This document shows positions 2,582-55,042 of a DNA stretch of 64,000 nt, piece after piece. The DNA comes from Patescibacteria group bacterium (GTDB taxonomy: Bacteria > Patescibacteriota > Minisyncoccia > Phycocordibacterales > JBBTRF01): contig JBBTRF010000001.1 in the NCBI GenBank assembly GCA_038065315.1, forward strand, positions 528,458 to 592,457. Direction: 5' to 3'. The position numbers and the translations under genes are program-made. The notes under the pieces were generated by a model. It had not been told where the DNA came from. It did not search any database and saw only the letters and a list, made by a program, of their open reading frames with translations. Positions within the stretch are counted from its first letter, which is position 1, and each line of letters opens with the position of its first letter.

Positions 2582-3280
2582 ATGACAGTCATTAAACACA
2601 AAGAACAGCGTGTCGGTATTTTCATCGACGCACAGAATCTCTATCACTCAGCCAAAAACCTGTACCATGCTCGAGTCAATTTCGGACAGGTAGTAAAGGA
2701 TGCGCTCGCGGGCCGTGCTCTCATTCGCGCCATCGCCTACGTGATCACCACGGAGAGCGGCGAAGAGTCGGCCTTTTTCGAAGCGCTCACTAAAATGGGC
2801 ATCGAGGCCAAGACCAAAGACCTCCAGATTTTCGCCGGCGGCAGCAAGAAAGCCGATTGGGACGTGGGACTCGCGGTAGATGCAATCAAAATGGCGCCGA
2901 AGCTCGACACCGTGATCCTCGTGACCGGTGATGGCGACTTCGTACCCCTCGTCGAATACCTCCAGATGAACGAAGGATGTCAGGTGGAAGTCGTTTCCTT
3001 CGGCCGCTCAAGCTCACTCAAGCTCAAAGAAGCCGTGGATGAATTCATCGATCTCGATACCAACGCGCGCAAGTACCTCATCGGCGCAGGCATTGCTGCA
3101 CGAGGTGGTGGTCGCGGCATCCGCGGCGGACGAGGACGAGGTGGGGCAGTAAGCGATGGCCGACCGCACCTCAATCGCACTCACTCAGACGTGAACAACA
3201 CTATTTTGGACAACGCCACAGCAACCACACCTTCTCCGGAACATTCCCGAGCAGAAAACGACGGACCAGTGATACAATAA
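2582..3280 (+). CDS. NYN/LabA-like (PIN-fold) nuclease-domain protein with C-terminal RGG-rich tail
   Basis: GIFIDAQNLYHSAKNL...RAIAYVI...ADWDVGLAVDAI...VILVTGDGDFVPLV is a NYN/LabA-like motif set. The C-terminus is ARGGGRGIRGGRGRGG low complexity. Confidence 0.65.
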   Translation: MTVIKHKEQRVGIFIDAQNLYHSAKNLYHARVNFGQVVKDALAGRALIRAIAYVITTESGEESAFFEALTKMGIEAKTKDLQIFAGGSKKADWDVGLAVDAIKMAPKLDTVILVTGDGDFVPLVEYLQMNEGCQVEVVSFGRSSSLKLKEAVDEFIDLDTNARKYLIGAGIAARGGGRGIRGGRGRGGAVSDGRPHLNRTHSDVNNTILDNATATTPSPEHSRAENDGPVIQ

Positions 3281-41731: not shown

Positions 41732-42790
41732 TTACAGAAACTTTCCCGAAGCTTTCAATCCAAGGTGTTCGTGCGCCTTGCCGGTGGCGATGCGGCCGCG
41801 CGGGGTGCGTTCGAGGAAACCGAGCTGGAGTAAGTATGGTTCGTGTACCTCTTCGATGGTCGCTTCTTCCTCGGAGAGCGCGGCCGCCAGAGTGTTTAGG
41901 CCTACAGGGCCGCCACTGAATTTTTCGATAAGAGTTGTAAGTACGGCACGGTCTGAAGGCAACAGGCCAATGTGGTCGACGCCAAGGAGGTCGAGCGCTT
42001 TCTTCACAACGTCGGCATCGAGCTTGCCTTTTTTCACTTGGGCAAAGTCGCGGCAGCGCTTGAGCAGATAGTTGGCAGTACGCGGCGTGAAGCGGCTGCG
42101 CTTGGCGATCTCGGCAATCGCGGCAGTTTCAATCTCCACCCCGAGAATCTTCGCTGAACGCTTCACGATCTCTTCGATCTCGGGTTGGGAATAAAATTCG
42201 AGACGGAAGGTGCCGCCACTGAAGCGTGAACGAAGCGGCGAGGACAGCATGGCAATGCGCGTGGTAGCGGCGATCAAAGTAAACGCGGGCAGCTCAAGCT
42301 GAATAGTGCGCGCCGAAGGTCCTTTGCCAATGATGATGTCTAGCGAGCCCGACTCCATGGCAGGGTAAAGGATCTCTTCAATGGAGCGGTTCAGACGATG
42401 TATCTCATCGACAAACAAAATGTCACCAGCCGAAAGATTGGTTAAAATCGAGGCCAAGTCGCCGACTTTCTCGATCGCCGGGCCGGAGGTCACCTTCATC
42501 TGTGCGTTCATTTCTTTGGAAATGAGATGGGCGAGAGTGGTTTTGCCGAGACCTGGTGGGCCGTAGAAGAGAATGTGTTCAGGTGGATGGTTGCGTTCGC
42601 GTGCGGCAGTGAGCAGGATACTGAGGTTCTCCTTGATATTTTTCTGGCCAATATAATCATCCCACTGCGACGGGCGCAGTGTTTGATCGAGGAAATTCTC
42701 GTCGGCAGGTGCACCACCAACATCGGTTCCTACTGAAGGCACCTTTCCGGCACCTTTTTGCAGGTCTTTTTTTGAATCGCTCTGCGACAT
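41732..42790 (-). CDS. ruvB: Holliday junction branch-migration ATPase RuvB
   Basis: [19 protein letters not shown]...[24 protein letters not shown]...[10 protein letters not shown]. Confidence 0.95.
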
Positions 42791-42905
42791 GCGCCCATTA
42801 TACTCCTTTTCGTGAGGCGACAGCCCTTTACTTTTAGCCGAACTTTGGTACTGTTACAGGCCGCGTTGGTCAGGAGGGTCTCGCGAAGAGGGCAGGAGGT
42901 GACTT

Positions 42906-42934
42906 GACATTTAGCTTAAATAATGCTAAGATAG
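42906..42934 (+). promoter_or_regulatory. sigma70-type promoter (TTGACA-N17-TAAGAT) with no downstream ORF
   Basis: cTTGACAtttagcttaaataatgcTAAGATagtc. The next 270 nt have no plus-strand ORF of 60 aa or more. Confidence 0.45.
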
Positions 42935-42940
42935 TCAATG

Positions 42941-43215
42941 AATCGGTCAGAAGTCGAGCGTATCGACAAATCAATTTGAAAGAGAAAGGAACGAAAAACG
43001 GCCATAATAGGCCATTTTTTCACGCATTTCCAGCATAGTAATCTCTAAGCAATACACCTGCAAGGGTTTAGTAGTTTCTCAACAAGGACGTCCTGGCTTC
43101 GGCTGTGAGTATCCTTAGTCGCTTAACTTGGCTTTTAGTCTAGTATTAAAAGCATTGCTTAGAGATTACTGCGCTCGAACCTCTTTTTAAGACGCCCTTC
43201 GGGGCATTTTGTCTT
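42941..43215 (+). ncRNA. candidate structured small RNA(s) of unknown class
   Basis: It lies downstream of the promoter above. A GTCGA-GCGTA-TCGAC hairpin and a GGCC...GGCC+T6 element were seen at about 43008-43030. A perfect 17-bp inverted repeat pair encloses about 100 nt. A GCCC-UUCG-GGGC hairpin plus a U-tract sits at about 43193-43215. Confidence 0.3.
43037..43170. repeat. perfect 17-bp inverted repeats AGTAATCTCTAAGCAAT / ATTGCTTAGAGATTACT separated by 100 bp
   Basis: 43037-43053 and 43154-43170 are exact reverse complements. The interior contains the CCTGCAAGGGTTTAGTA motif that recurs at 12163. Confidence 0.85.
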
Positions 43216-43303
43216 TTTCTGCCACCATCTTATCGTACCGATACATTCCTGCAACTTCCGTTTCAGAAAAAACGTGTTGCGGTTTTTGTTCTGACGAATT
43301 TTT

Positions 43304-45001
43304 CTAGAATTCGTCGAAGAGGTCAATCACACGACTCAGTTCATCGAGGGAAGTGACACCACGGAGCATTTTCAACACGCCATCTTGACGCATGTCGAGG
43401 ATACCTTGAGCGAGCGCGGCCTTTTTGATCTCGCGCTCGCTCGGATTGCCGATCACCGCTTGTTCTATTGCTTCGCTGCGCAGGATAGCTTCATAGATAC
43501 CGATTCGGCCCTTGTATCCGGTCAGATTGCATTTATCACAGCCGACAGGGAGCCATTGTTTCGTGGCGTCGACAGATTCTTTTGTCAGGGCATCTCGATA
43601 TGACGGATCGGCAATCGCGGCGAGGGTCTTGGCTACGAGCGCAGCATTTTCCGGATCTAGTGGCGCTTGTTTTTTGCACGATGGACACAATACGCGTACA
43701 AGTCGCTGTGCCAGAGCGATATTCACGGCCGAGGTAAGCGTCTTTGGATTTACACCGAGGTCGATGAGGCGGGGGAAGGTGCCAGCAGCGCTATTGGTGT
43801 GCAGTGTGGAGAATACAAGGTGGCCAGTCTGTGCGGAGTTGATCGCAATTTGCGCGGTTTCATTGTCGCGAATTTCACCCACCATGATCACATCAGGGTC
43901 CTGTCGCAAAGCAGCGCGCAATCCGTTCAAAAAATCATACCCTTTTTCCGACTCGACCTGCGTCTGCACGATGCCAGGCAGATGATATTCGATCGGGTCT
44001 TCGATGGTGATAATCTTGATCTCCGGCTTGCTCACTTTCCTCAAAAAGGCATATAGCGTCGTGGTTTTTCCAGATCCGGTCGGGCCAGTGGTGAGGATCA
44101 TGCCCTCTGGTCGGTCGATCTCTTTCTGCAACACCGCGAAGAGCTTCGGGTCGATGCCCATGTCTTCGAGCGGCACCGCAATATTTTTTGGATTCAAAAT
44201 ACGCATTACGATAGACTCGCTGTACGAGCCGGGCAGGATTGATACGCGGATTTCGATCTCACTTTCGTTGAGCTTCACGCTGAGACGACCGTCTTGCGCG
44301 TCGGTTTTGATATTGAGCTTCATGCCCGACAACAGCTTTACGCGAGAGAGGAGGAGGTGGTATGTCTCATGATCGAGAGAGAGTACATTGTGGAGTACGC
44401 CATCGAGACGCAAGCGCAGACGCACAGCATTTTCTTCCGGCTCGAGGTGGACGTCGGAAGCGCCGGTGGCCAATGCACCAGCAAGGATGATTTCGAAGAT
44501 TTTCGAGATACGGAAACCTTTATTTTGAGATAAAATGTCCGCGACCATCTTCTTCACGTCCTCGACCGTCTGCACTTTGGCGAGCATTTCCGCGATCTCC
44601 TCACTCGACACCTCGAGCGAACCAGCCTTGGTCTCCGAAGCGAAGGAAAGATCCTTGTACATCTCCCAAGCACGAGTGAGACTGTTGATCGATGCCATCG
44701 CCTGCGACACTTTGTATCCTTTCTGCTCAAGCTCGCCAATCAAAGCGATGGTCGCATCATTTTTTGGCGAGAGTACGGCGATCTCGAGGCGCTTGTCGAC
44801 GCGGTTGTATGCCACACATTTCGCCGCACGCGCTTTTGATTCTTCGATTACACGCAGCGCATCGCTATTGATGGGGATCTGCGAGAAATTCACATAGAGC
44901 AAGCCATAGCGTGCGGCGAGCATCTGGGCCAGCTCCTCTTCCTCGGTGGAGTAGAGGTCCTTGATCTTCTTATTTTGCTTGTCTTCGTCAAACTGGATCA
45001 T
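43304..45001 (-). CDS. pilB: type IV pilus assembly / type II secretion ATPase (PilB/GspE family)
   Basis: It has an N-terminal GspE_N-like domain. Walker A TGPTGSGKTTTLYAFL and the His-box region follow. A C-terminal Cys cluster (CPSCKK...CDKC) was seen. Length is 565 aa. Confidence 0.9.
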   Translation of the reverse strand: MIQFDEDKQNKKIKDLYSTEEEELAQMLAARYGLLYVNFSQIPINSDALRVIEESKARAAKCVAYNRVDKRLEIAVLSPKNDATIALIGELEQKGYKVSQAMASINSLTRAWEMYKDLSFASETKAGSLEVSSEEIAEMLAKVQTVEDVKKMVADILSQNKGFRISKIFEIILAGALATGASDVHLEPEENAVRLRLRLDGVLHNVLSLDHETYHLLLSRVKLLSGMKLNIKTDAQDGRLSVKLNESEIEIRVSILPGSYSESIVMRILNPKNIAVPLEDMGIDPKLFAVLQKEIDRPEGMILTTGPTGSGKTTTLYAFLRKVSKPEIKIITIEDPIEYHLPGIVQTQVESEKGYDFLNGLRAALRQDPDVIMVGEIRDNETAQIAINSAQTGHLVFSTLHTNSAAGTFPRLIDLGVNPKTLTSAVNIALAQRLVRVLCPSCKKQAPLDPENAALVAKTLAAIADPSYRDALTKESVDATKQWLPVGCDKCNLTGYKGRIGIYEAILRSEAIEQAVIGNPSEREIKKAALAQGILDMRQDGVLKMLRGVTSLDELSRVIDLFDEF

Positions 45002-50839: not shown

Positions 50840-51682
50840 CTACCTCCTAAACAACCCTTCAAAGTCCTCCTTCGGCATCTCGTAATTAAACCCTGGCGCT
50901 TTCTCCTGCAATCGCCCGCAGCGTTCTTTGTCATATTTCGGCGTCTTCTTCAATTGCACAAAACACACGGCTGAATACCGGCCCTCCTTTGCGGTCTGCG
51001 CGGTGGCGACCACCCGATGGCAGGTGGCTTTCAGCTGTCCGCTGGAGCGTAGCTGCATTTGCATCGAGGGGATGATCACGGTTTCGTCAGCCGAAACAGG
51101 CATGTCGATCCATTGCTTCTCGCGAGTGAGGCACTGCAACCCCGCCGCGCTCTCGTACAAGTGGGGAGTGAAGCCGCTTTGATCCGCGTGGGCACTGGCG
51201 ATCTCTTCGCCGACGGTCCGATCGCCAAAATAATGAATAAAGCGGATGAAATACGCATCCTCGCCCTGCTCGACCTCCTTTGTGAAATCTGGTAGAGCAA
51301 AAGCCTCTTCCGCCTGTCGCGCAAATTCCACGATGAGCGGCTTGGTCAGCGCCACTAGCGCCGAAGCGTCTTCGATGAAGCACAGGGCGACGGCGTTCTT
51401 CACCTTGCCGGCGTTTTCCGTGAGCCAGCGCTTGCTGCCGGTAGTGACATCGAAATTTTCCTTGTGATCTGCCTTGTTTCCAACACCGTCTTTCAATTCG
51501 TATCCAACTCCATCAGCATTGTTGCTGTAGGGGAGACCGCGCTTCACTTCGGTCGGCAACGCACAGAACTCTTGCCACGAAGCGACAGCTTTTTCGACCG
51601 CCGCGCGCAGCTGCGGCGGGTACTTCATTGATACAAAACCGGTTGTAGCTAGATTTTCGATGTCTTTGATTGGATGTTTCAT
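50840..51682 (-). CDS. 2-oxoglutarate/Fe(II)-dependent oxygenase superfamily protein (IPNS-like fold)
   Basis: HADQSGFTPHL...GLQ...ATCHRVV gives the HxD...H facial triad plus the RxS-like 2OG-binding region. The ATG (MKHPIKD) at 51682 is preferred. Confidence 0.5.
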   Translation of the reverse strand: MKHPIKDIENLATTGFVSMKYPPQLRAAVEKAVASWQEFCALPTEVKRGLPYSNNADGVGYELKDGVGNKADHKENFDVTTGSKRWLTENAGKVKNAVALCFIEDASALVALTKPLIVEFARQAEEAFALPDFTKEVEQGEDAYFIRFIHYFGDRTVGEEIASAHADQSGFTPHLYESAAGLQCLTREKQWIDMPVSADETVIIPSMQMQLRSSGQLKATCHRVVATAQTAKEGRYSAVCFVQLKKTPKYDKERCGRLQEKAPGFNYEMPKEDFEGLFRR

Positions 51683-51736
51683 GTCCAAAGTATACAAAGC
51701 CGCGAAAAACAAAAAAGCGAGGGAGTCCTCGGTAAT

Positions 51737-52453
51737 TTACATCTTCTCACCAACCTGCTCATCTTCCTCGTAGAAGAAGGGCAGTGAGTCGATTTTGCTG
51801 TTGCTGATCGCGACGAGCACCTTGGCGATGGCTTTGAGCGAGTCGAACTCTGCGGATTCATTTTGGATAGCTTGGTCGATTGGCACCCACATGTTTTTGC
51901 CGAATTCGGTGTCGATCAATTCGCCCGAGTGGCTGCTCGCATACGCGATGGGGAAGAAGACATCTGAAAACAACTCATCTTTCACATACAGCATGCGGCG
52001 CTGGATGCCGACGATCCTGAAGTCCGCGTCGAGTCCGGTTTCGGTTTTCAGTTTTCGCGCGGCTGCCTTTTCAACCGGCTCTGCTTTGCGCACGATGCCA
52101 CCCATCACGCCGATTTTCCCAAAAGAGGGGTGGCTCTGGCGGAGCTGGTTGAGGATCTCAAGCTTGCCGTCTCGGACGCGCGACACAATGGTGATGACAT
52201 TCACTTTGAACAGACTCGCAATCTTTTCTTGCTCGTCCACGAGGTGCGGATCGGCGACATGTTTGATGCCGCTCTGTGCGAGAGAGTATCCGTCATCGCT
52301 GCGCTCAACCAGGCCTTTTTTCACGAGGAATTGCAGGTGATAATTGAAGAGGTCGTTCGGGATCTTTTCTGGCGCGAGTTCGCTGTAGCGGAGGAGTTTC
52401 GCGTTTTTTAGCTTGGTGAGAATGTGGTTTTGGATGGGGGAGAGGGCGGGCAT
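51737..52453 (-). CDS. winged-HTH + NUDIX hydrolase fusion protein
   Basis: The N-terminal wHTH (LTKLKNAKLLRYSELAPEKIPNDLFNYHLQFLVKKGLVERSDDGYSL) is followed by the Nudix box GGIVRKAEPVEKAAARKLKTETGL (G-x5-E-x7-REUxEExGU-like). The true start is probably the internal ATG MPALSPIQ; the listed TTG start reads through the upstream terminator. Confidence 0.55.
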   Translation of the reverse strand: MPALSPIQNHILTKLKNAKLLRYSELAPEKIPNDLFNYHLQFLVKKGLVERSDDGYSLAQSGIKHVADPHLVDEQEKIASLFKVNVITIVSRVRDGKLEILNQLRQSHPSFGKIGVMGGIVRKAEPVEKAAARKLKTETGLDADFRIVGIQRRMLYVKDELFSDVFFPIAYASSHSGELIDTEFGKNMWVPIDQAIQNESAEFDSLKAIAKVLVAISNSKIDSLPFFYEEDEQVGEKM

Positions 52454-52509
52454 TGGAGTGTCGAGTAGAGCGTAGCACGGCAAAAAGGAAAAGAAAAATC
52501 GCAAAGAAA

Positions 52510-52544
52510 AAACCAGTTTCGACTTGCGTCTAACTGGTTGATGA
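52510..52544 (-). terminator. rho-independent terminator on minus strand just upstream of the NUDIX gene start
   Basis: On the minus strand it reads AACCAGTTAGACGCAAGTCGAAACTGGTTTTTT, a 6-7 bp stem with a U6 tail. Confidence 0.5.
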
Positions 52545-52940
52545 ATCGGGACGAGGTGATATCTACCCCATCACAGTCGGGGAGTACACCCCAAGCTGTT
52601 GTCCGGTTGGGACGGACTCCTATTTAGTTTCGCTGCATGAGAAATCTTTTTGAGATCCCCCAGTGACTAGCTAGGCGATGATGGAAGGTGCTTCGTTATG
52701 CGAGTGACACGCTTCGTGTCCCCTAATTACTCACGGTCTGTCTTGCTCCCGTGCGCACTTATCATTCCTCTCTGGGTCTATTTGTAAGGCAGTCCAACTC
52801 CGATATTGTCCGGGCGCATTGCTCGGGCGGCTCGGCTAGAACTGGCACAAACGCGATTCGTCTTTCAACTTGTCGCTTTACGACCCTTTCGTCGCTCCCT
52901 TGCGAGAGCTCACTTTCAATATCCTGCTCGACCGATTCAG
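52545..52940 (-). ncRNA. candidate about 400-nt structured RNA or long leader of unknown class
   Basis: A minus-strand TTGACA-N17-TACGCT promoter-like element lies at about 52945-52975. Several hairpins were seen (GACACG-aagc-GTGTC; GGGG-tgtact-CCCC). The region ends at the terminator above. The only ORFs here (76 and 97 aa) use rare codons. Confidence 0.3.
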
Positions 52941-53116
52941 TGACTAGCGTACTCCCAGAGGTAGGGGGTGTCAACTGTGTCGGCCGCGCCATCCCGGAAA
53001 GTCATTTTGTAATGTATTACGACGGACGGCGGCTTAGTAAGTGATCGAGACTAATACGCATCAATCACTCATATTTATACAATACCTTTATACAATAACA
53101 ATTAATCACCATCTTT

Positions 53117-53776
53117 ATGATCAACACAACCACACTTCGCAACGCCAACGTCTCCACTATCGGCATCTTCGTCGCAGCGCTTATTCTCACCGCTTCATTT
53201 GCAGCGGAGAAGGCGGATGCGGCTATCGTCAGCCAGCTCCAGCTTGGTTCAAGCGGTGCACAAGTCACCCAGCTCCAACAGTTTTTGGCGCTCAACACCA
53301 AGGTGTACCCAGCCGGTCTCGTCACTGGCTACTTCGGACCGATGACTCAGGCAGCGGTCTTGCAGTTCCAGGCCAACTATGACATTTCTCAGGTAGGACG
53401 AGTCGGACCTGCGACCATGGCACGCATGAACGCAGTGATGAATGCCGGTCAGGGCCTCGACATCGATGCACCATCGATCTCAAATCTCACCGTACAGACC
53501 AATAGCTTCAGCACCACTTTGAGCTTGAACAGCGACTCGAATGTTCGCGCGAAGGTTTTCTACAGCACACAACCCTTGCAGGTTCAGGAGGCTTCGTACA
53601 GCTTCACTGCTCCATCGGTCAGCGGACTTTCTGTAGAGTCCGGTGCATTTGGTACCTCACAGAGTATCTCTCTGACCAACTTGTCATCGAACACCATCTA
53701 CTACTACCTCGTACAGGCGACCGATCTTTCGGGGAACGTTTCTGTCACCCGACAGAGCAGCTTCCAGACACGGTAG
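53117..53776 (+). CDS. secreted peptidoglycan-binding-domain protein with fibronectin-III-like C-terminal domain
   Basis: It has a signal peptide. The PG_binding_1-like region is LQLGSSGAQVTQLQQFLALN...GYFGPMTQAAVLQFQ. An S/T-rich beta domain follows. Confidence 0.55.
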   Translation: MINTTTLRNANVSTIGIFVAALILTASFAAEKADAAIVSQLQLGSSGAQVTQLQQFLALNTKVYPAGLVTGYFGPMTQAAVLQFQANYDISQVGRVGPATMARMNAVMNAGQGLDIDAPSISNLTVQTNSFSTTLSLNSDSNVRAKVFYSTQPLQVQEASYSFTAPSVSGLSVESGAFGTSQSISLTNLSSNTIYYYLVQATDLSGNVSVTRQSSFQTR

Positions 53777-53869: not shown

Positions 53870-54151
53870 TCAACTTTTTGCAGCCATCTGAAGTTCTTTT
53901 TGAAGTTTGGAAAGTTCCTGGTCACTGCGCCCTTTTTCCTGCCTTAGTTTTAAGGTCTCAGATTCGAGTTTCCTGACATCTCCGTCGATTTTTCGGACCT
54001 CTCCTTCTAGTTTGGCAATCTCAGATTGTTTCTGTGTCAGACTAGCCTTGGCACCTCTAAGTTCGGTTTCTTTTTGTTGGAGTTCGGATACCCCCTTTTG
54101 AATTTGTCTTTGTAATTCCGAAATCGCCGCTGAAATGTTGCTACTGTTCAT
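53870..54151 (-). CDS. small coiled-coil protein, hypothetical
   Basis: 93 aa with a heptad-rich sequence (ELQRQIQKGVSELQQKETELRGAKASLTQKQSEIAKLEGEVRKIDGDVRKLESETLKL). Confidence 0.4.
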   Translation of the reverse strand: MNSSNISAAISELQRQIQKGVSELQQKETELRGAKASLTQKQSEIAKLEGEVRKIDGDVRKLESETLKLRQEKGRSDQELSKLQKELQMAAKS

Positions 54152-54235
54152 GCTGAGATGATTAGTATATTAATGGATTGAATTATATCACAAGCAGAAA
54201 GGGGAACGTGCGAGCGATTTTGTATGTTTGACATT

Positions 54236-54265
54236 CATAAACCAAAGTATATACTTTGGTTTATG
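54236..54265. promoter_or_regulatory. 30-bp perfect palindrome (putative antitoxin operator) overlapping the dinJ-like start codon
   Basis: CATAAACCAAAGTATATACTTTGGTTTATG. Its last three nt are the ATG of the antitoxin ORF. Confidence 0.6.
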
Positions 54266-54532
54266 AAGACCGTACTCAACCTGAAGGTCGATAAGGCGTT
54301 GAAAGTGCAGGCACAGAAAACCGCCGCGGATTTTGGTATTCCGCTCGGCACGCTGATGAATGCCTTTCTGCGGCAGTTTGTGCGGACGAAGGAAGTAAAT
54401 CTCGATCTCACGTATCAGCCGACCAAGTATCTTGCGGACATCATTAAGGAATCGCGGGCGGAGTATGCCAGAGGAGAGGCGAACGGGCCTTTTACGGGAG
54501 ATGAGTTTATTGAGCATCTGAAGAAGCTTTAG
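54263..54532 (+). CDS. RelB/DinJ-family antitoxin
   Basis: MKTVLNLKVDKALKVQAQKTAADFGIPLGTLMNAFLRQFVRTKEVNLDL follows the DinJ pattern (MxxxLNxKxDxxLKxxA...G..LS...N.FL). Confidence 0.6.
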   Translation: MKTVLNLKVDKALKVQAQKTAADFGIPLGTLMNAFLRQFVRTKEVNLDLTYQPTKYLADIIKESRAEYARGEANGPFTGDEFIEHLKKL

Positions 54533-54538
54533 TTTCCA

Positions 54539-54799
54539 ATGCGGTATTTGAGCTCAAAAAAATTTGATAAGCAGTTTTCAAAATTGCCAAAAGGGCTAAA
54601 GTTGAAGGCTGTCGAGCGCGTCACGATTTTTACAAAGGATCCTTTTGCTCCGATCCTAAACAATCATCAGCTGAATGGGGTGTGGGCGAATTGTCGGAGT
54701 ATCAATATTACTGCGGATATTCGAGCCGTGTATGAGATGGTGGAAGAGGATGTTGCGTATTTCGTGGCGATCGGGTCGCATGCAGAGCTGTATCGGTAA
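54539..54799 (+). CDS. YafQ/RelE-family mRNA-interferase toxin
   Basis: FDKQFSKLPKGLKLKAVERVTIF...HQLNGVWANCRSINITADIRAVYEMVEEDVAYFVAIGSHAELY matches YafQ (DKQFxKL...HxLxGxWxxxRexHIxpDwlLIYk...GtHsdLF). Confidence 0.6.
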   Translation: MRYLSSKKFDKQFSKLPKGLKLKAVERVTIFTKDPFAPILNNHQLNGVWANCRSINITADIRAVYEMVEEDVAYFVAIGSHAELYR

Positions 54800-54969
54800 T
54801 CTACTGTGTGGTCACGGATAATTTCTTCGCCGTCGCTCAGAAATTTCTTCGAAGCCTCCCGGCATTCGCTACTGCTCACCTGCCTCGGCTGTTTTGCCTG
54901 GTGGCAAAACATGCCTCCGGCTCACACCTGTACGAAAAAATCCGGAGCAGTCCGGATTTTTTCGTCTTG

Positions 54970-55042
54970 TGCGCCCGGTTGGAATCGAACCAACGACCCT
55001 CTGCTTAAAAGGCAGGTGCTCTACCGACTGAGCTACGGGCGC
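54970..55042 (-). tRNA. tRNA-Lys (anticodon TTT)
   Basis: The minus strand reads GCGCCCGTAGCTCAGTCGGTAGAGCACCTGCCTTTTAAGCAGAGGGTCGTTGGTTCGATTCCAACCGGGCGCA. The acceptor stem is 7 bp. D-loop AGCTCAGTCGGTAGAGC, anticodon loop CTTTTAA and T-loop GGTTCGATTCC are present. CCA is not encoded. Confidence 0.9.

Follow-up and report, generated by a model that had tools for sequence, protein, structure and literature searches.

The stretch of DNA analysed here (64,000 nt of contig JBBTRF010000001.1, from a Patescibacteria group bacterium; hereafter, the window) harbors on its minus strand a predicted structured RNA of some 430 nt. It lies upstream of a pair of genes, one coding for a protein in which a winged helix-turn-helix (wHTH) domain precedes a Nudix domain, the other for a 2-oxoglutarate (2OG)-Fe(II) oxygenase. 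The sequence-only reading of this locus had described a TTGACA-N17-TACGCT element ahead of about 400 nt of structured non-coding DNA, followed by a terminator just before the Nudix start codon, and both features were confirmed. The -35 hexamer TTGACA (52969..52974) and the -10 hexamer TACGCT (52946..52951; coordinates of all RNA features refer to the minus strand) can be read from the sequence, with a spacer of 17 nt. The motif TTGACA-N17-TAnnnT occurs five times in the window for an expectation of 0.25, a number reached by none of 100 shuffled sequences, and it therefore represents the real promoter type of the organism rather than a chance match. The predicted transcript, of ~433 nt (52507..52941), has its 5' end placed from the promoter geometry and its 3' end from the U-tract; its delineation also draws on nhmmer homologues, covariation and the non-coding character of the region. 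It ends with an intrinsic terminator (52507..52539) in which an 8-bp stem, AACCAGUU/AACUGGUU, encloses an inner GCAA-capped stem (A GAC GCAA GUC GA) and is followed by U6, 53 nt from the U-tract to the ATG of the Nudix gene (52453). The hairpin has a predicted energy of -13.2 kcal/mol (z = -3.5), and it was missed by a general terminator scan because the loop, which contains the nested stem, is longer than 8 nt. For the whole RNA region, the corresponding values are -149.7 kcal/mol and z = -2.5.

Homologues of the RNA were sought with nhmmer on the contigs that carry homologues of the Nudix protein and on contigs reached through a nearby gene for a SpoU methylase. The RNA was found in five species-level lineages of Patescibacteria from groundwater, with E-values of 2e-25 to 5e-45 when the RNA of the window served as the query and down to 2e-152 with a profile. 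These are the species of the window (L001-L009), L010/L011, L016 (same as L052), which is the closest relative by RNA score, L012 (same as L045), in which the contig stops within the RNA, and L017/L018, recovered again as L072 and L110. Conservation, the lack of which had been named beforehand as a possible refutation, is thus found across all five. Promoter, RNA and terminator are kept together in the four lineages besides the window. In the alignment, the TTGACA hexamer is invariant in five of five lineages, the -10 element of the relatives reads TAGACT or TAGGCT, and all five fit TTGACA-N17-TA(G/C)(A/G)CT. A hairpin with a U-run is present in every lineage with a complete 3' end, and the terminators of these four lineages have energies of -10 to -18 kcal/mol, with z from -2.3 to -4.0. 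As for the host, a Nudix protein exactly matching that of the window is also encoded on contigs of the metagenome-assembled genome GCA_964355935.1 and in Hainich groundwater assemblies, and the named relatives of the RuvB protein of the window belong to the Paceibacterota/Parcubacteria.

Larger collections, namely 185,579 GTDB species and 241 million metagenome records, were scanned with a pattern of 18 specified bases taken from the most conserved block of the RNA, AACGAAGCACCNNCNATCANCG. The 40 genome and 50 metagenome matches included only four that nhmmer showed to be real (L045, L052, L072 and L110), all of which belong to lineages already found, and the other matches were due to chance. 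An earlier pattern for the metagenomes, TAACGAAGCACCTNCNATCATCG, was too strict and gave no match, and three pattern scans of viral contigs yielded chance seed matches only. A partial match in L086 (E=4e-5) was rejected as the start of a protein gene (ATGAACGAAGCACCC...). Following SpoU synteny, L115 (SpoU 63% identical) and L019 were found to carry only tRNA-Lys at the site; L115, a more distant relative, shares the synteny, with tRNA-Lys alone between holA and SpoU. Two Logan contigs, L113 and L114, which come from short-read assemblies of related genomes, break inside tRNA-Lys, just before the expected position of the RNA. As far as a search by exact patterns can tell, from which more diverged members would escape, the RNA family is narrow.

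Two open reading frames (ORFs) overlap this DNA, one of 76 aa on the minus strand (52762..52992) and one of 97 aa on the plus strand, and the locus might in principle be a small protein gene, coding for the acidic 76-aa product or for an antisense one. The start of the 76-aa ORF lies upstream of the -35 element, the ORF has no equivalent in four homologous loci, the 97-aa ORF is no better conserved, and no ORF is common to the lineages. Nor did either ORF give a credible Pfam match. Mismatches within the RNA show little preference for any codon phase (26/36/40, 40/44/38 and the like), and many indels of 1-2 nt break the frame. In the same species pairs, flanking genes used as controls gave 16/9/72, 24/10/89 and 33/21/112, with zero indels. 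The 76-aa ORF had been singled out by the sequence-only reading as what might overturn it, if conserved and translated; it proved not to be conserved, and the view of the region as RNA rather than protein-coding was upheld. The protein-coding explanation, which we consider to have a negligible probability, is effectively refuted.

A consensus fold of 102 pairs was obtained with RNAalifold from a small set of related sequences (five lineages, four of them with a complete 3' end), in which 90.2% of the cells are paired. Both sides are altered in 29 of the 102 pairs, compared with 13.2±2.8 after shuffling of the columns (none of 500 shuffles reaches 29), and sliding the partners by one to three columns brings this number down to 3-8. 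Compensatory changes are found in the closing helix, in the terminator (helix 14, with five pairs altered on both sides) and in most of the internal helices, and the RNA fold is supported by this covariation. Overall identity among the five RNA sequences is only ~70-75%, and invariant blocks of 10-20 nt alternate with compensating helices and length-variable hairpins; the peripheral arms, which vary in length, yet fold as hairpins in every lineage. Read on the opposite strand, several invariant G-U pairs would turn into A-C mismatches, and since these pairs, the promoter and the U-tract agree in direction, the RNA can be assigned to the minus strand.

The 5' and 3' ends of the RNA are joined by a closing helix, P1 or helix 1 of the consensus fold, whose strands are GAAUCGGUCGAG (52927..52938) and CUCGUCCCGAUUC (52543..52555). 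Its 11 pairs are 100% paired, two of them being altered on both sides, and it is probably extended by GAUAUU/GAUAUC. Helix 3 (52891..52913) is a GNRA-capped hairpin, with a GCAA tetraloop that is GAAA in L016 and with both sides altered in four of its nine pairs. A junction domain follows (helices 4-7; 52774..52886), closed by an invariant GGGUC/GACCC helix and carrying one variable hairpin and another (52853-52876) that has a GNRA cap and an AA/GA internal loop. The core domain (helices 8-10; 52676..52773) harbors the most conserved sequence, GUGUGCUAAGUGCG ... CGCnnAACGAAGCACCnnCnAUCAnCG (52697-52676), and an asymmetric conserved loop in which UAA lies opposite UUAACGAA. Next to it, helices 11-12 (52624..52677) form a domain of the type GAGC...GGGGGAU-loop-AUUCCUC...UGCAGC..GCUC, with several invariant G-U pairs that fit the minus strand only. 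Two peripheral hairpins, variable in length and sequence (52559..52623), were folded lineage by lineage. An RNA with several tetraloops, conserved joining strands and ends that pair would be expected to be compact and stable, and these features are atypical for small RNAs (sRNAs) that act by base pairing. An independent sRNA had been put forward in the sequence-only reading as one possibility. The independence of the RNA is supported by its own promoter and terminator and by its varied context (see below), while at ~430 nt and some 14 helices it is no typical sRNA.

The other possibility raised for this arrangement, attenuation or riboswitch-like control of the Nudix-oxygenase pair, supposes a cis-acting leader that would sense a ligand or a factor, its terminator deciding on read-through into the two genes. 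The geometry does fit in the window and in L010, where the order is tRNA-Lys, RNA, Nudix, oxygenase and membrane protein, followed by holA and polA on the other strand. As in known leaders of this kind, a long structured region with an intrinsic terminator stands just upstream of a gene start in these two lineages, and the 45 nt between terminator and ATG are nearly identical in both. In addition, Logan contig L009 (run ERR3654040, 1477 nt), which corresponds to the minus strand of the window from 52941 to ~51465, starts within 2 nt of the promoter-predicted RNA start and spans the terminator and the Nudix gene into the oxygenase gene. However, comparison with the other lineages contradicts a leader function. 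In L016, the terminator meets the stop codon of a convergent holA gene and no co-oriented gene lies downstream; in L018, it is followed by a TGTATAAT promoter element and then by two small pilin-like genes unrelated to the pair; in L012, the RNA begins 46 nt past the stop codon of the oxygenase gene, with a TTGACA-N17-TAGACT promoter of its own. Conversely, no RNA is found upstream of the Nudix genes of L012 (89% identity, 115-nt gap) and L014/L015 (74%, 20-nt gap). Adjacency to the Nudix-oxygenase pair is thus a feature of the locus in some lineages, not a requirement.

The RNA itself also differs from such leaders. Its closing helix and its terminator are adjacent and do not overlap in the consensus fold, where the two would not compete and no conserved anti-terminator pairing was seen, although alternative pairings were not searched for systematically. 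No known aptamer class was matched: the sole hit, to c-di-GMP-I-UAU, was obtained for the window only, at 13.8 bits and E=7.1, and is absent in the homologues. The RNA is about two to four times longer than typical riboswitches and is tied to no particular downstream gene. Furthermore, the Nudix gene appears to have a promoter of its own, in the form of an extended -10-like element, TGCTACGCT (52469..52477, minus strand; TGnTACGCT form), located between the terminator and the ATG; in L012, where there is no RNA at that site, TGCTAAGAT is found ahead of the Nudix gene. Between the Nudix and oxygenase genes, a terminator-like hairpin, CGAGGACUCCCUCG, with a U-run (51718..51731, minus strand) was detected by the terminator scan and by reading of the sequence. 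Behind it, the oxygenase gene has its own -10-like element, TGTATACT, 6 nt before its ATG, and another TTGACA-N17-TACTTT motif sits past the oxygenase stop codon. The simplest reading of the locus is that of a row of separate transcription units. Taken with the contexts in L016, L018 and L012 and with the Nudix genes devoid of RNA, this leaves the leader proposal, which the sequence-only reading had raised, very improbable. The lesson for annotation is not to take every long structured region that has a terminator just ahead of a gene for a riboswitch; here, the two cases were separated by genome comparison.

Extended -10-like elements of the type TGnTAnnnT often stand only 6-15 nt before an ATG in these genomes, as in the window at 51660-51690 and 52451-52477 and in L018 at 3195-3230, and no Shine-Dalgarno sequence is visible at those genes. 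This suggests that the lineage may use leaderless or near-leaderless mRNAs.

Whether the RNA belongs to a known family was addressed by the Rfam and cmscan searches that had been proposed for the leader. At the gathering score, Rfam 15 identified only tRNA-Lys in the whole window, and cmscan at E≤10 on the RNA of four homologues gave no consistent family. The RNA is thus new to Rfam 15 and is known from five related Patescibacteria. No match was obtained with the covariance models of OLE, ROOL, GOLLD, raiA and HEARO. Transfer-messenger RNA (tmRNA) was not detected by ARAGORN in the window, L010, L016 and L018 and gave no Rfam hit, and the RNA has neither a GGG...CCA acceptor stem nor a T-arm. 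A resemblance to helix 8 of the signal recognition particle (SRP) RNA (GCAGC) was rejected on account of its wrong spacing and of the absence of a covariance model hit.

Among universal stable RNAs, of which this one might be a highly diverged example, RNase P RNA deserves most attention. A size of ~430 nt, paired 5' and 3' ends, a multi-domain fold, a strong promoter, probably strong and constitutive expression, and a tRNA neighbor are all features that the RNA shares with bacterial RNase P RNAs. The P4 sequences GGAAAGUCC and ACAGAAnCCGGCUUA are universally conserved in RNase P RNA, and core sequences of this RNA are common across phyla. By inspection, neither P4 sequence occurs in the conserved blocks of the RNA described here; look-alikes, AGGAGUCCG in the window and ACACAGACCGGCCCUUAUCCGG in L010, were rejected as they lie in variable hairpins not conserved between lineages. 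Long-range pairing of the P4 type is not seen in the consensus fold, and the RNA lacks the P4 pseudoknot as well as the CR-I and CR-V sequences. When four homologues were scanned at E≤10, none gave a hit to the RNase P, tmRNA, SRP or 6S families. The block of highest conservation in the RNA is lineage-specific, matching two true loci among the 185,579 GTDB species, in contrast with an RNase P core that spans phyla, and L115, with the same synteny, has tRNA-Lys alone at the site. On the other hand, RNase P RNAs of bacteria of the Candidate Phyla Radiation (CPR) are often missed at default Rfam thresholds; Lui et al. used a 5-bit cut-off, and lowered thresholds were needed to find the RNA in 10 of 35 circular CPR genomes (PMC8172020). 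The floor of cmscan in the present analysis, ~13 bits, lies above that cut-off. All considered, identity with RNase P RNA or another universal stable RNA appears unlikely, if marginally less so than a leader function.

It is more probable, and we hold this with reasonable though not full confidence, that positions 52941-52507 of the minus strand represent a free-standing gene whose product is a stable and highly structured non-coding RNA of ~430 nt that acts in trans. According to this model, transcription of the RNA would start from a sigma-70-type promoter of its own, with consensus sequence, and would stop at an intrinsic terminator that likewise belongs to it. The long closing helix would join the 5' end to the 3' end, and about six helical domains would radiate from this helix, two of them GNRA-capped and several with invariant internal loops and joining strands. 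Action in trans, which is most likely, would be exerted by the compact folded RNA alone or as the RNA part of a ribonucleoprotein, and the RNA does not appear to be a cis switch of the Nudix gene. Several considerations weigh against this view. The covariation statistics rest on five known, related lineages, only four of which have the 3' end in full; the transcription of the RNA, its ends and its stability are all inferred; and default Rfam thresholds are known to overlook RNase P RNAs of CPR bacteria (PMC8172020). Contig L009 would show read-through into the Nudix gene if its run were a metatranscriptome, and a search of the literature on sequencing-run accessions returned nothing on whether it derives from one. 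Finally, the RNA adjoins the Nudix-oxygenase module in three of the five lineages, once in a rearranged form, which leaves room for a functional link.

The free-standing RNA gene has its closest parallels in OLE, ROOL, GOLLD and the raiA motif (PMC12286853, PMC10861870), which are likewise discrete genes with their own promoter and terminator. They also share with it a length of several hundred nucleotides, many covarying helices, GNRA tetraloops, invariant internal loops, a restricted phylogenetic range and the lack of an obvious target gene. It differs from them in that it matches none of their covariance models, in its host, a groundwater member of the Patescibacteria/Parcubacteria, in its much narrower range of five lineages, and in not having been found in viral contigs with the three patterns used. 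Patescibacteria have tiny genomes (~0.8 Mb) with little non-coding DNA. That such a genome retains a 430-nt RNA gene with a near-consensus promoter, invariant loops and an elaborate fold that covaries therefore implies that the RNA has a genuine function. To our knowledge, large structured RNAs of unknown function are rare. New RNA biochemistry or architecture came to light with each of RNase P RNA, OLE, ROOL, GOLLD and raiA, and in the literature searched no large structured RNA class was described for CPR bacteria.

The 238-residue wHTH-Nudix protein (51737..52453, minus strand) matches the Pfam families NUDIX (9e-09) and DUF7347 (4.5e-05). An AlphaFold2 model with a mean predicted local distance difference test score of 85 shows a wHTH domain (residues 6-58) that is joined by a disordered linker to a Nudix fold (residues 82-235). 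In Foldseek, MTH1 and the NrtR Nudix domain rank highest; phmmer also reaches AraR. The domain order noted at the outset, with the wHTH N-terminal, is thus borne out by Pfam, model and Foldseek alike. In active Nudix enzymes, the catalytic metal is bound through the glutamate of the RE pair and the first glutamate of the EE pair of the Nudix box. Throughout the homologues examined (120 of 120), the box reads GX5EX7-RKLKxE-TGL in place of REUxEE, the glutamate of the RE pair being always lysine and the first glutamate of the EE pair being glutamine, alanine, valine or threonine. Because the box is degenerate at the metal-binding positions, the domain is probably a ligand sensor and not a hydrolase. 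Of the term Nudix hydrolase used in the sequence-only reading, therefore, the fold stands and the activity is doubtful; the protein is probably a ligand-sensing regulator. The family is widespread in Patescibacteria, where it is annotated as hydrolase; 693 homologues were found there at E≤1e-3, most of them 62-74% identical. NrtR has an N-terminal Nudix domain and a C-terminal wHTH (PMC2330246). The protein described here resembles NrtR and AraR (PMC2330246, PMC4666351) in combining a Nudix fold with a winged helix and in having a degenerate catalytic box, which would suggest effector binding. It differs from them by its reversed domain order, with the Nudix domain C-terminal, and by a wHTH that resembles DUF7347/HTH_45 and not the C-terminal domain of NrtR.

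The 280-residue oxygenase (50840..51682, minus strand) matches 2OG-FeII_Oxy (PF03171, 1.9e-10) and DIOX_N (2e-05), and its translation keeps the HxD...H triad and the RxS motif (AHADQ...CHRV...RYS). Its best matches in the PDB are 3on7 and AdaV, the latter being annotated there as a nonheme iron and alpha-ketoglutarate dependent halogenase. AdaV is understood to act on a nucleotide. The pairing of the Nudix gene with a 2OG oxygenase gene, as originally noted, extends beyond the window, since the two are adjacent or at most three genes apart in four of four species examined. It is a reasonable guess that the pair might consist of a regulator and an enzyme for a nucleotide-like small molecule. 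The Patescibacteria-wide occurrence of a wHTH-Nudix protein whose box is invariantly degenerate, and its association with a 2OG oxygenase that is intact, point to an uncharacterised pair of sensor and enzyme.

An RNA that is independent in its expression could nonetheless be functionally tied to this module, as a ligand, substrate or partner of its putatively nucleotide-binding proteins, or by supplying the module through read-through. Consistent with such a tie, the adjacency in three of five lineages has outlived a rearrangement in L012, where the order is Nudix...oxygenase and then RNA; the degenerate Nudix box suggests binding rather than hydrolysis; and the relatives of the oxygenase include the AdaV halogenase. 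In contrast, the module is common across Patescibacteria, judging from the 693 Nudix homologues, whereas the RNA is confined to five lineages, in two of which (L016 and L018) it is present without the module at the site. The adjacency in the window and L010 reflects shared ancestry, and the order in L012 could come from a tandem duplication followed by loss. A functional tie seems doubtful to us, though less so than a leader function or a diverged RNase P RNA. Equally tentative is a bolder form of the model of a free-standing RNA gene, in which the RNA would define an undescribed class of large compact RNAs in a Parcubacteria-type lineage, a ribozyme or an 'ornate'-like RNA acting as RNA only or as a ribonucleoprotein. 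Such an RNA could be coupled to the pseudo-Nudix protein and the oxygenase by being bound or modified by them.

On the upstream side, the conserved neighbor of the RNA gene is a tRNA-Lys(UUU) gene (54969..55042, minus strand), identified with Rfam and ARAGORN. In L010 and L018 the RNA comes immediately after the tRNA, and in the window the two are parted by an insertion that comprises a gene for a peptidoglycan (PG)-binding domain (53117-53776, plus strand), an ORF for a 93-residue coiled-coil protein (53870-54151, minus strand) and a YafQ-type toxin/antitoxin pair (54224-54799, plus strand). All three are also present in L016 and are absent in L010 and L018. The segment from tRNA-Lys to holA thus varies on both sides of the RNA. 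No att-like direct repeats of the 3' end of tRNA-Lys were found around this variable segment, and an integrative island is therefore not supported; PADLOC found no defence-system match among the neighboring proteins.

Further RNA candidates are present elsewhere in the window, in the gap between the genes for RuvB (41732-42790, minus strand) and for the ATPase of a type II secretion system (T2SS-E; 43304-45001, minus strand). On the plus strand at 42904-43020, a second promoter, TTGACA-N17-TAAGAT, is followed by AGTCAATGAATCGGTC, which is identical at 16 of 17 positions to the first bases of the large RNA (AGTCACTGAATCGGTC). Echoes of UCGAGC and UUUGAAAG come next, and then a strong bidirectional terminator (AAAAACGGCCATAATAGGCCATTTTTT). 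This candidate, of ~85 nt, looks like an sRNA that would carry a copy of the 5' strand of the large RNA. In L116, the promoter, tail and terminator of the sRNA are conserved and the shared 22 nt are missing, and the similarity to the large RNA is therefore specific to the lineage of the window. Beside it, on the plus strand at ~43026-43222, lies a conserved long-hairpin element of ~160 nt that is also found upstream of RuvB in L116 and L117/L118. Rfam gave nothing for it at E≤10 except a chance match to a long non-coding RNA. A 17-bp stem (AGUAAUCUCUAAGCAAU/AUUGCUUAGAGAUUACU) closes the element, which also comprises a GCAA hairpin, an apex capped by UUCG and a terminator of its own and has a predicted energy of -62.3 kcal/mol (z = -4.1). 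Its conservation in two other lineages includes some compensatory changes, and it may be a 6S-like or another unannotated RNA.

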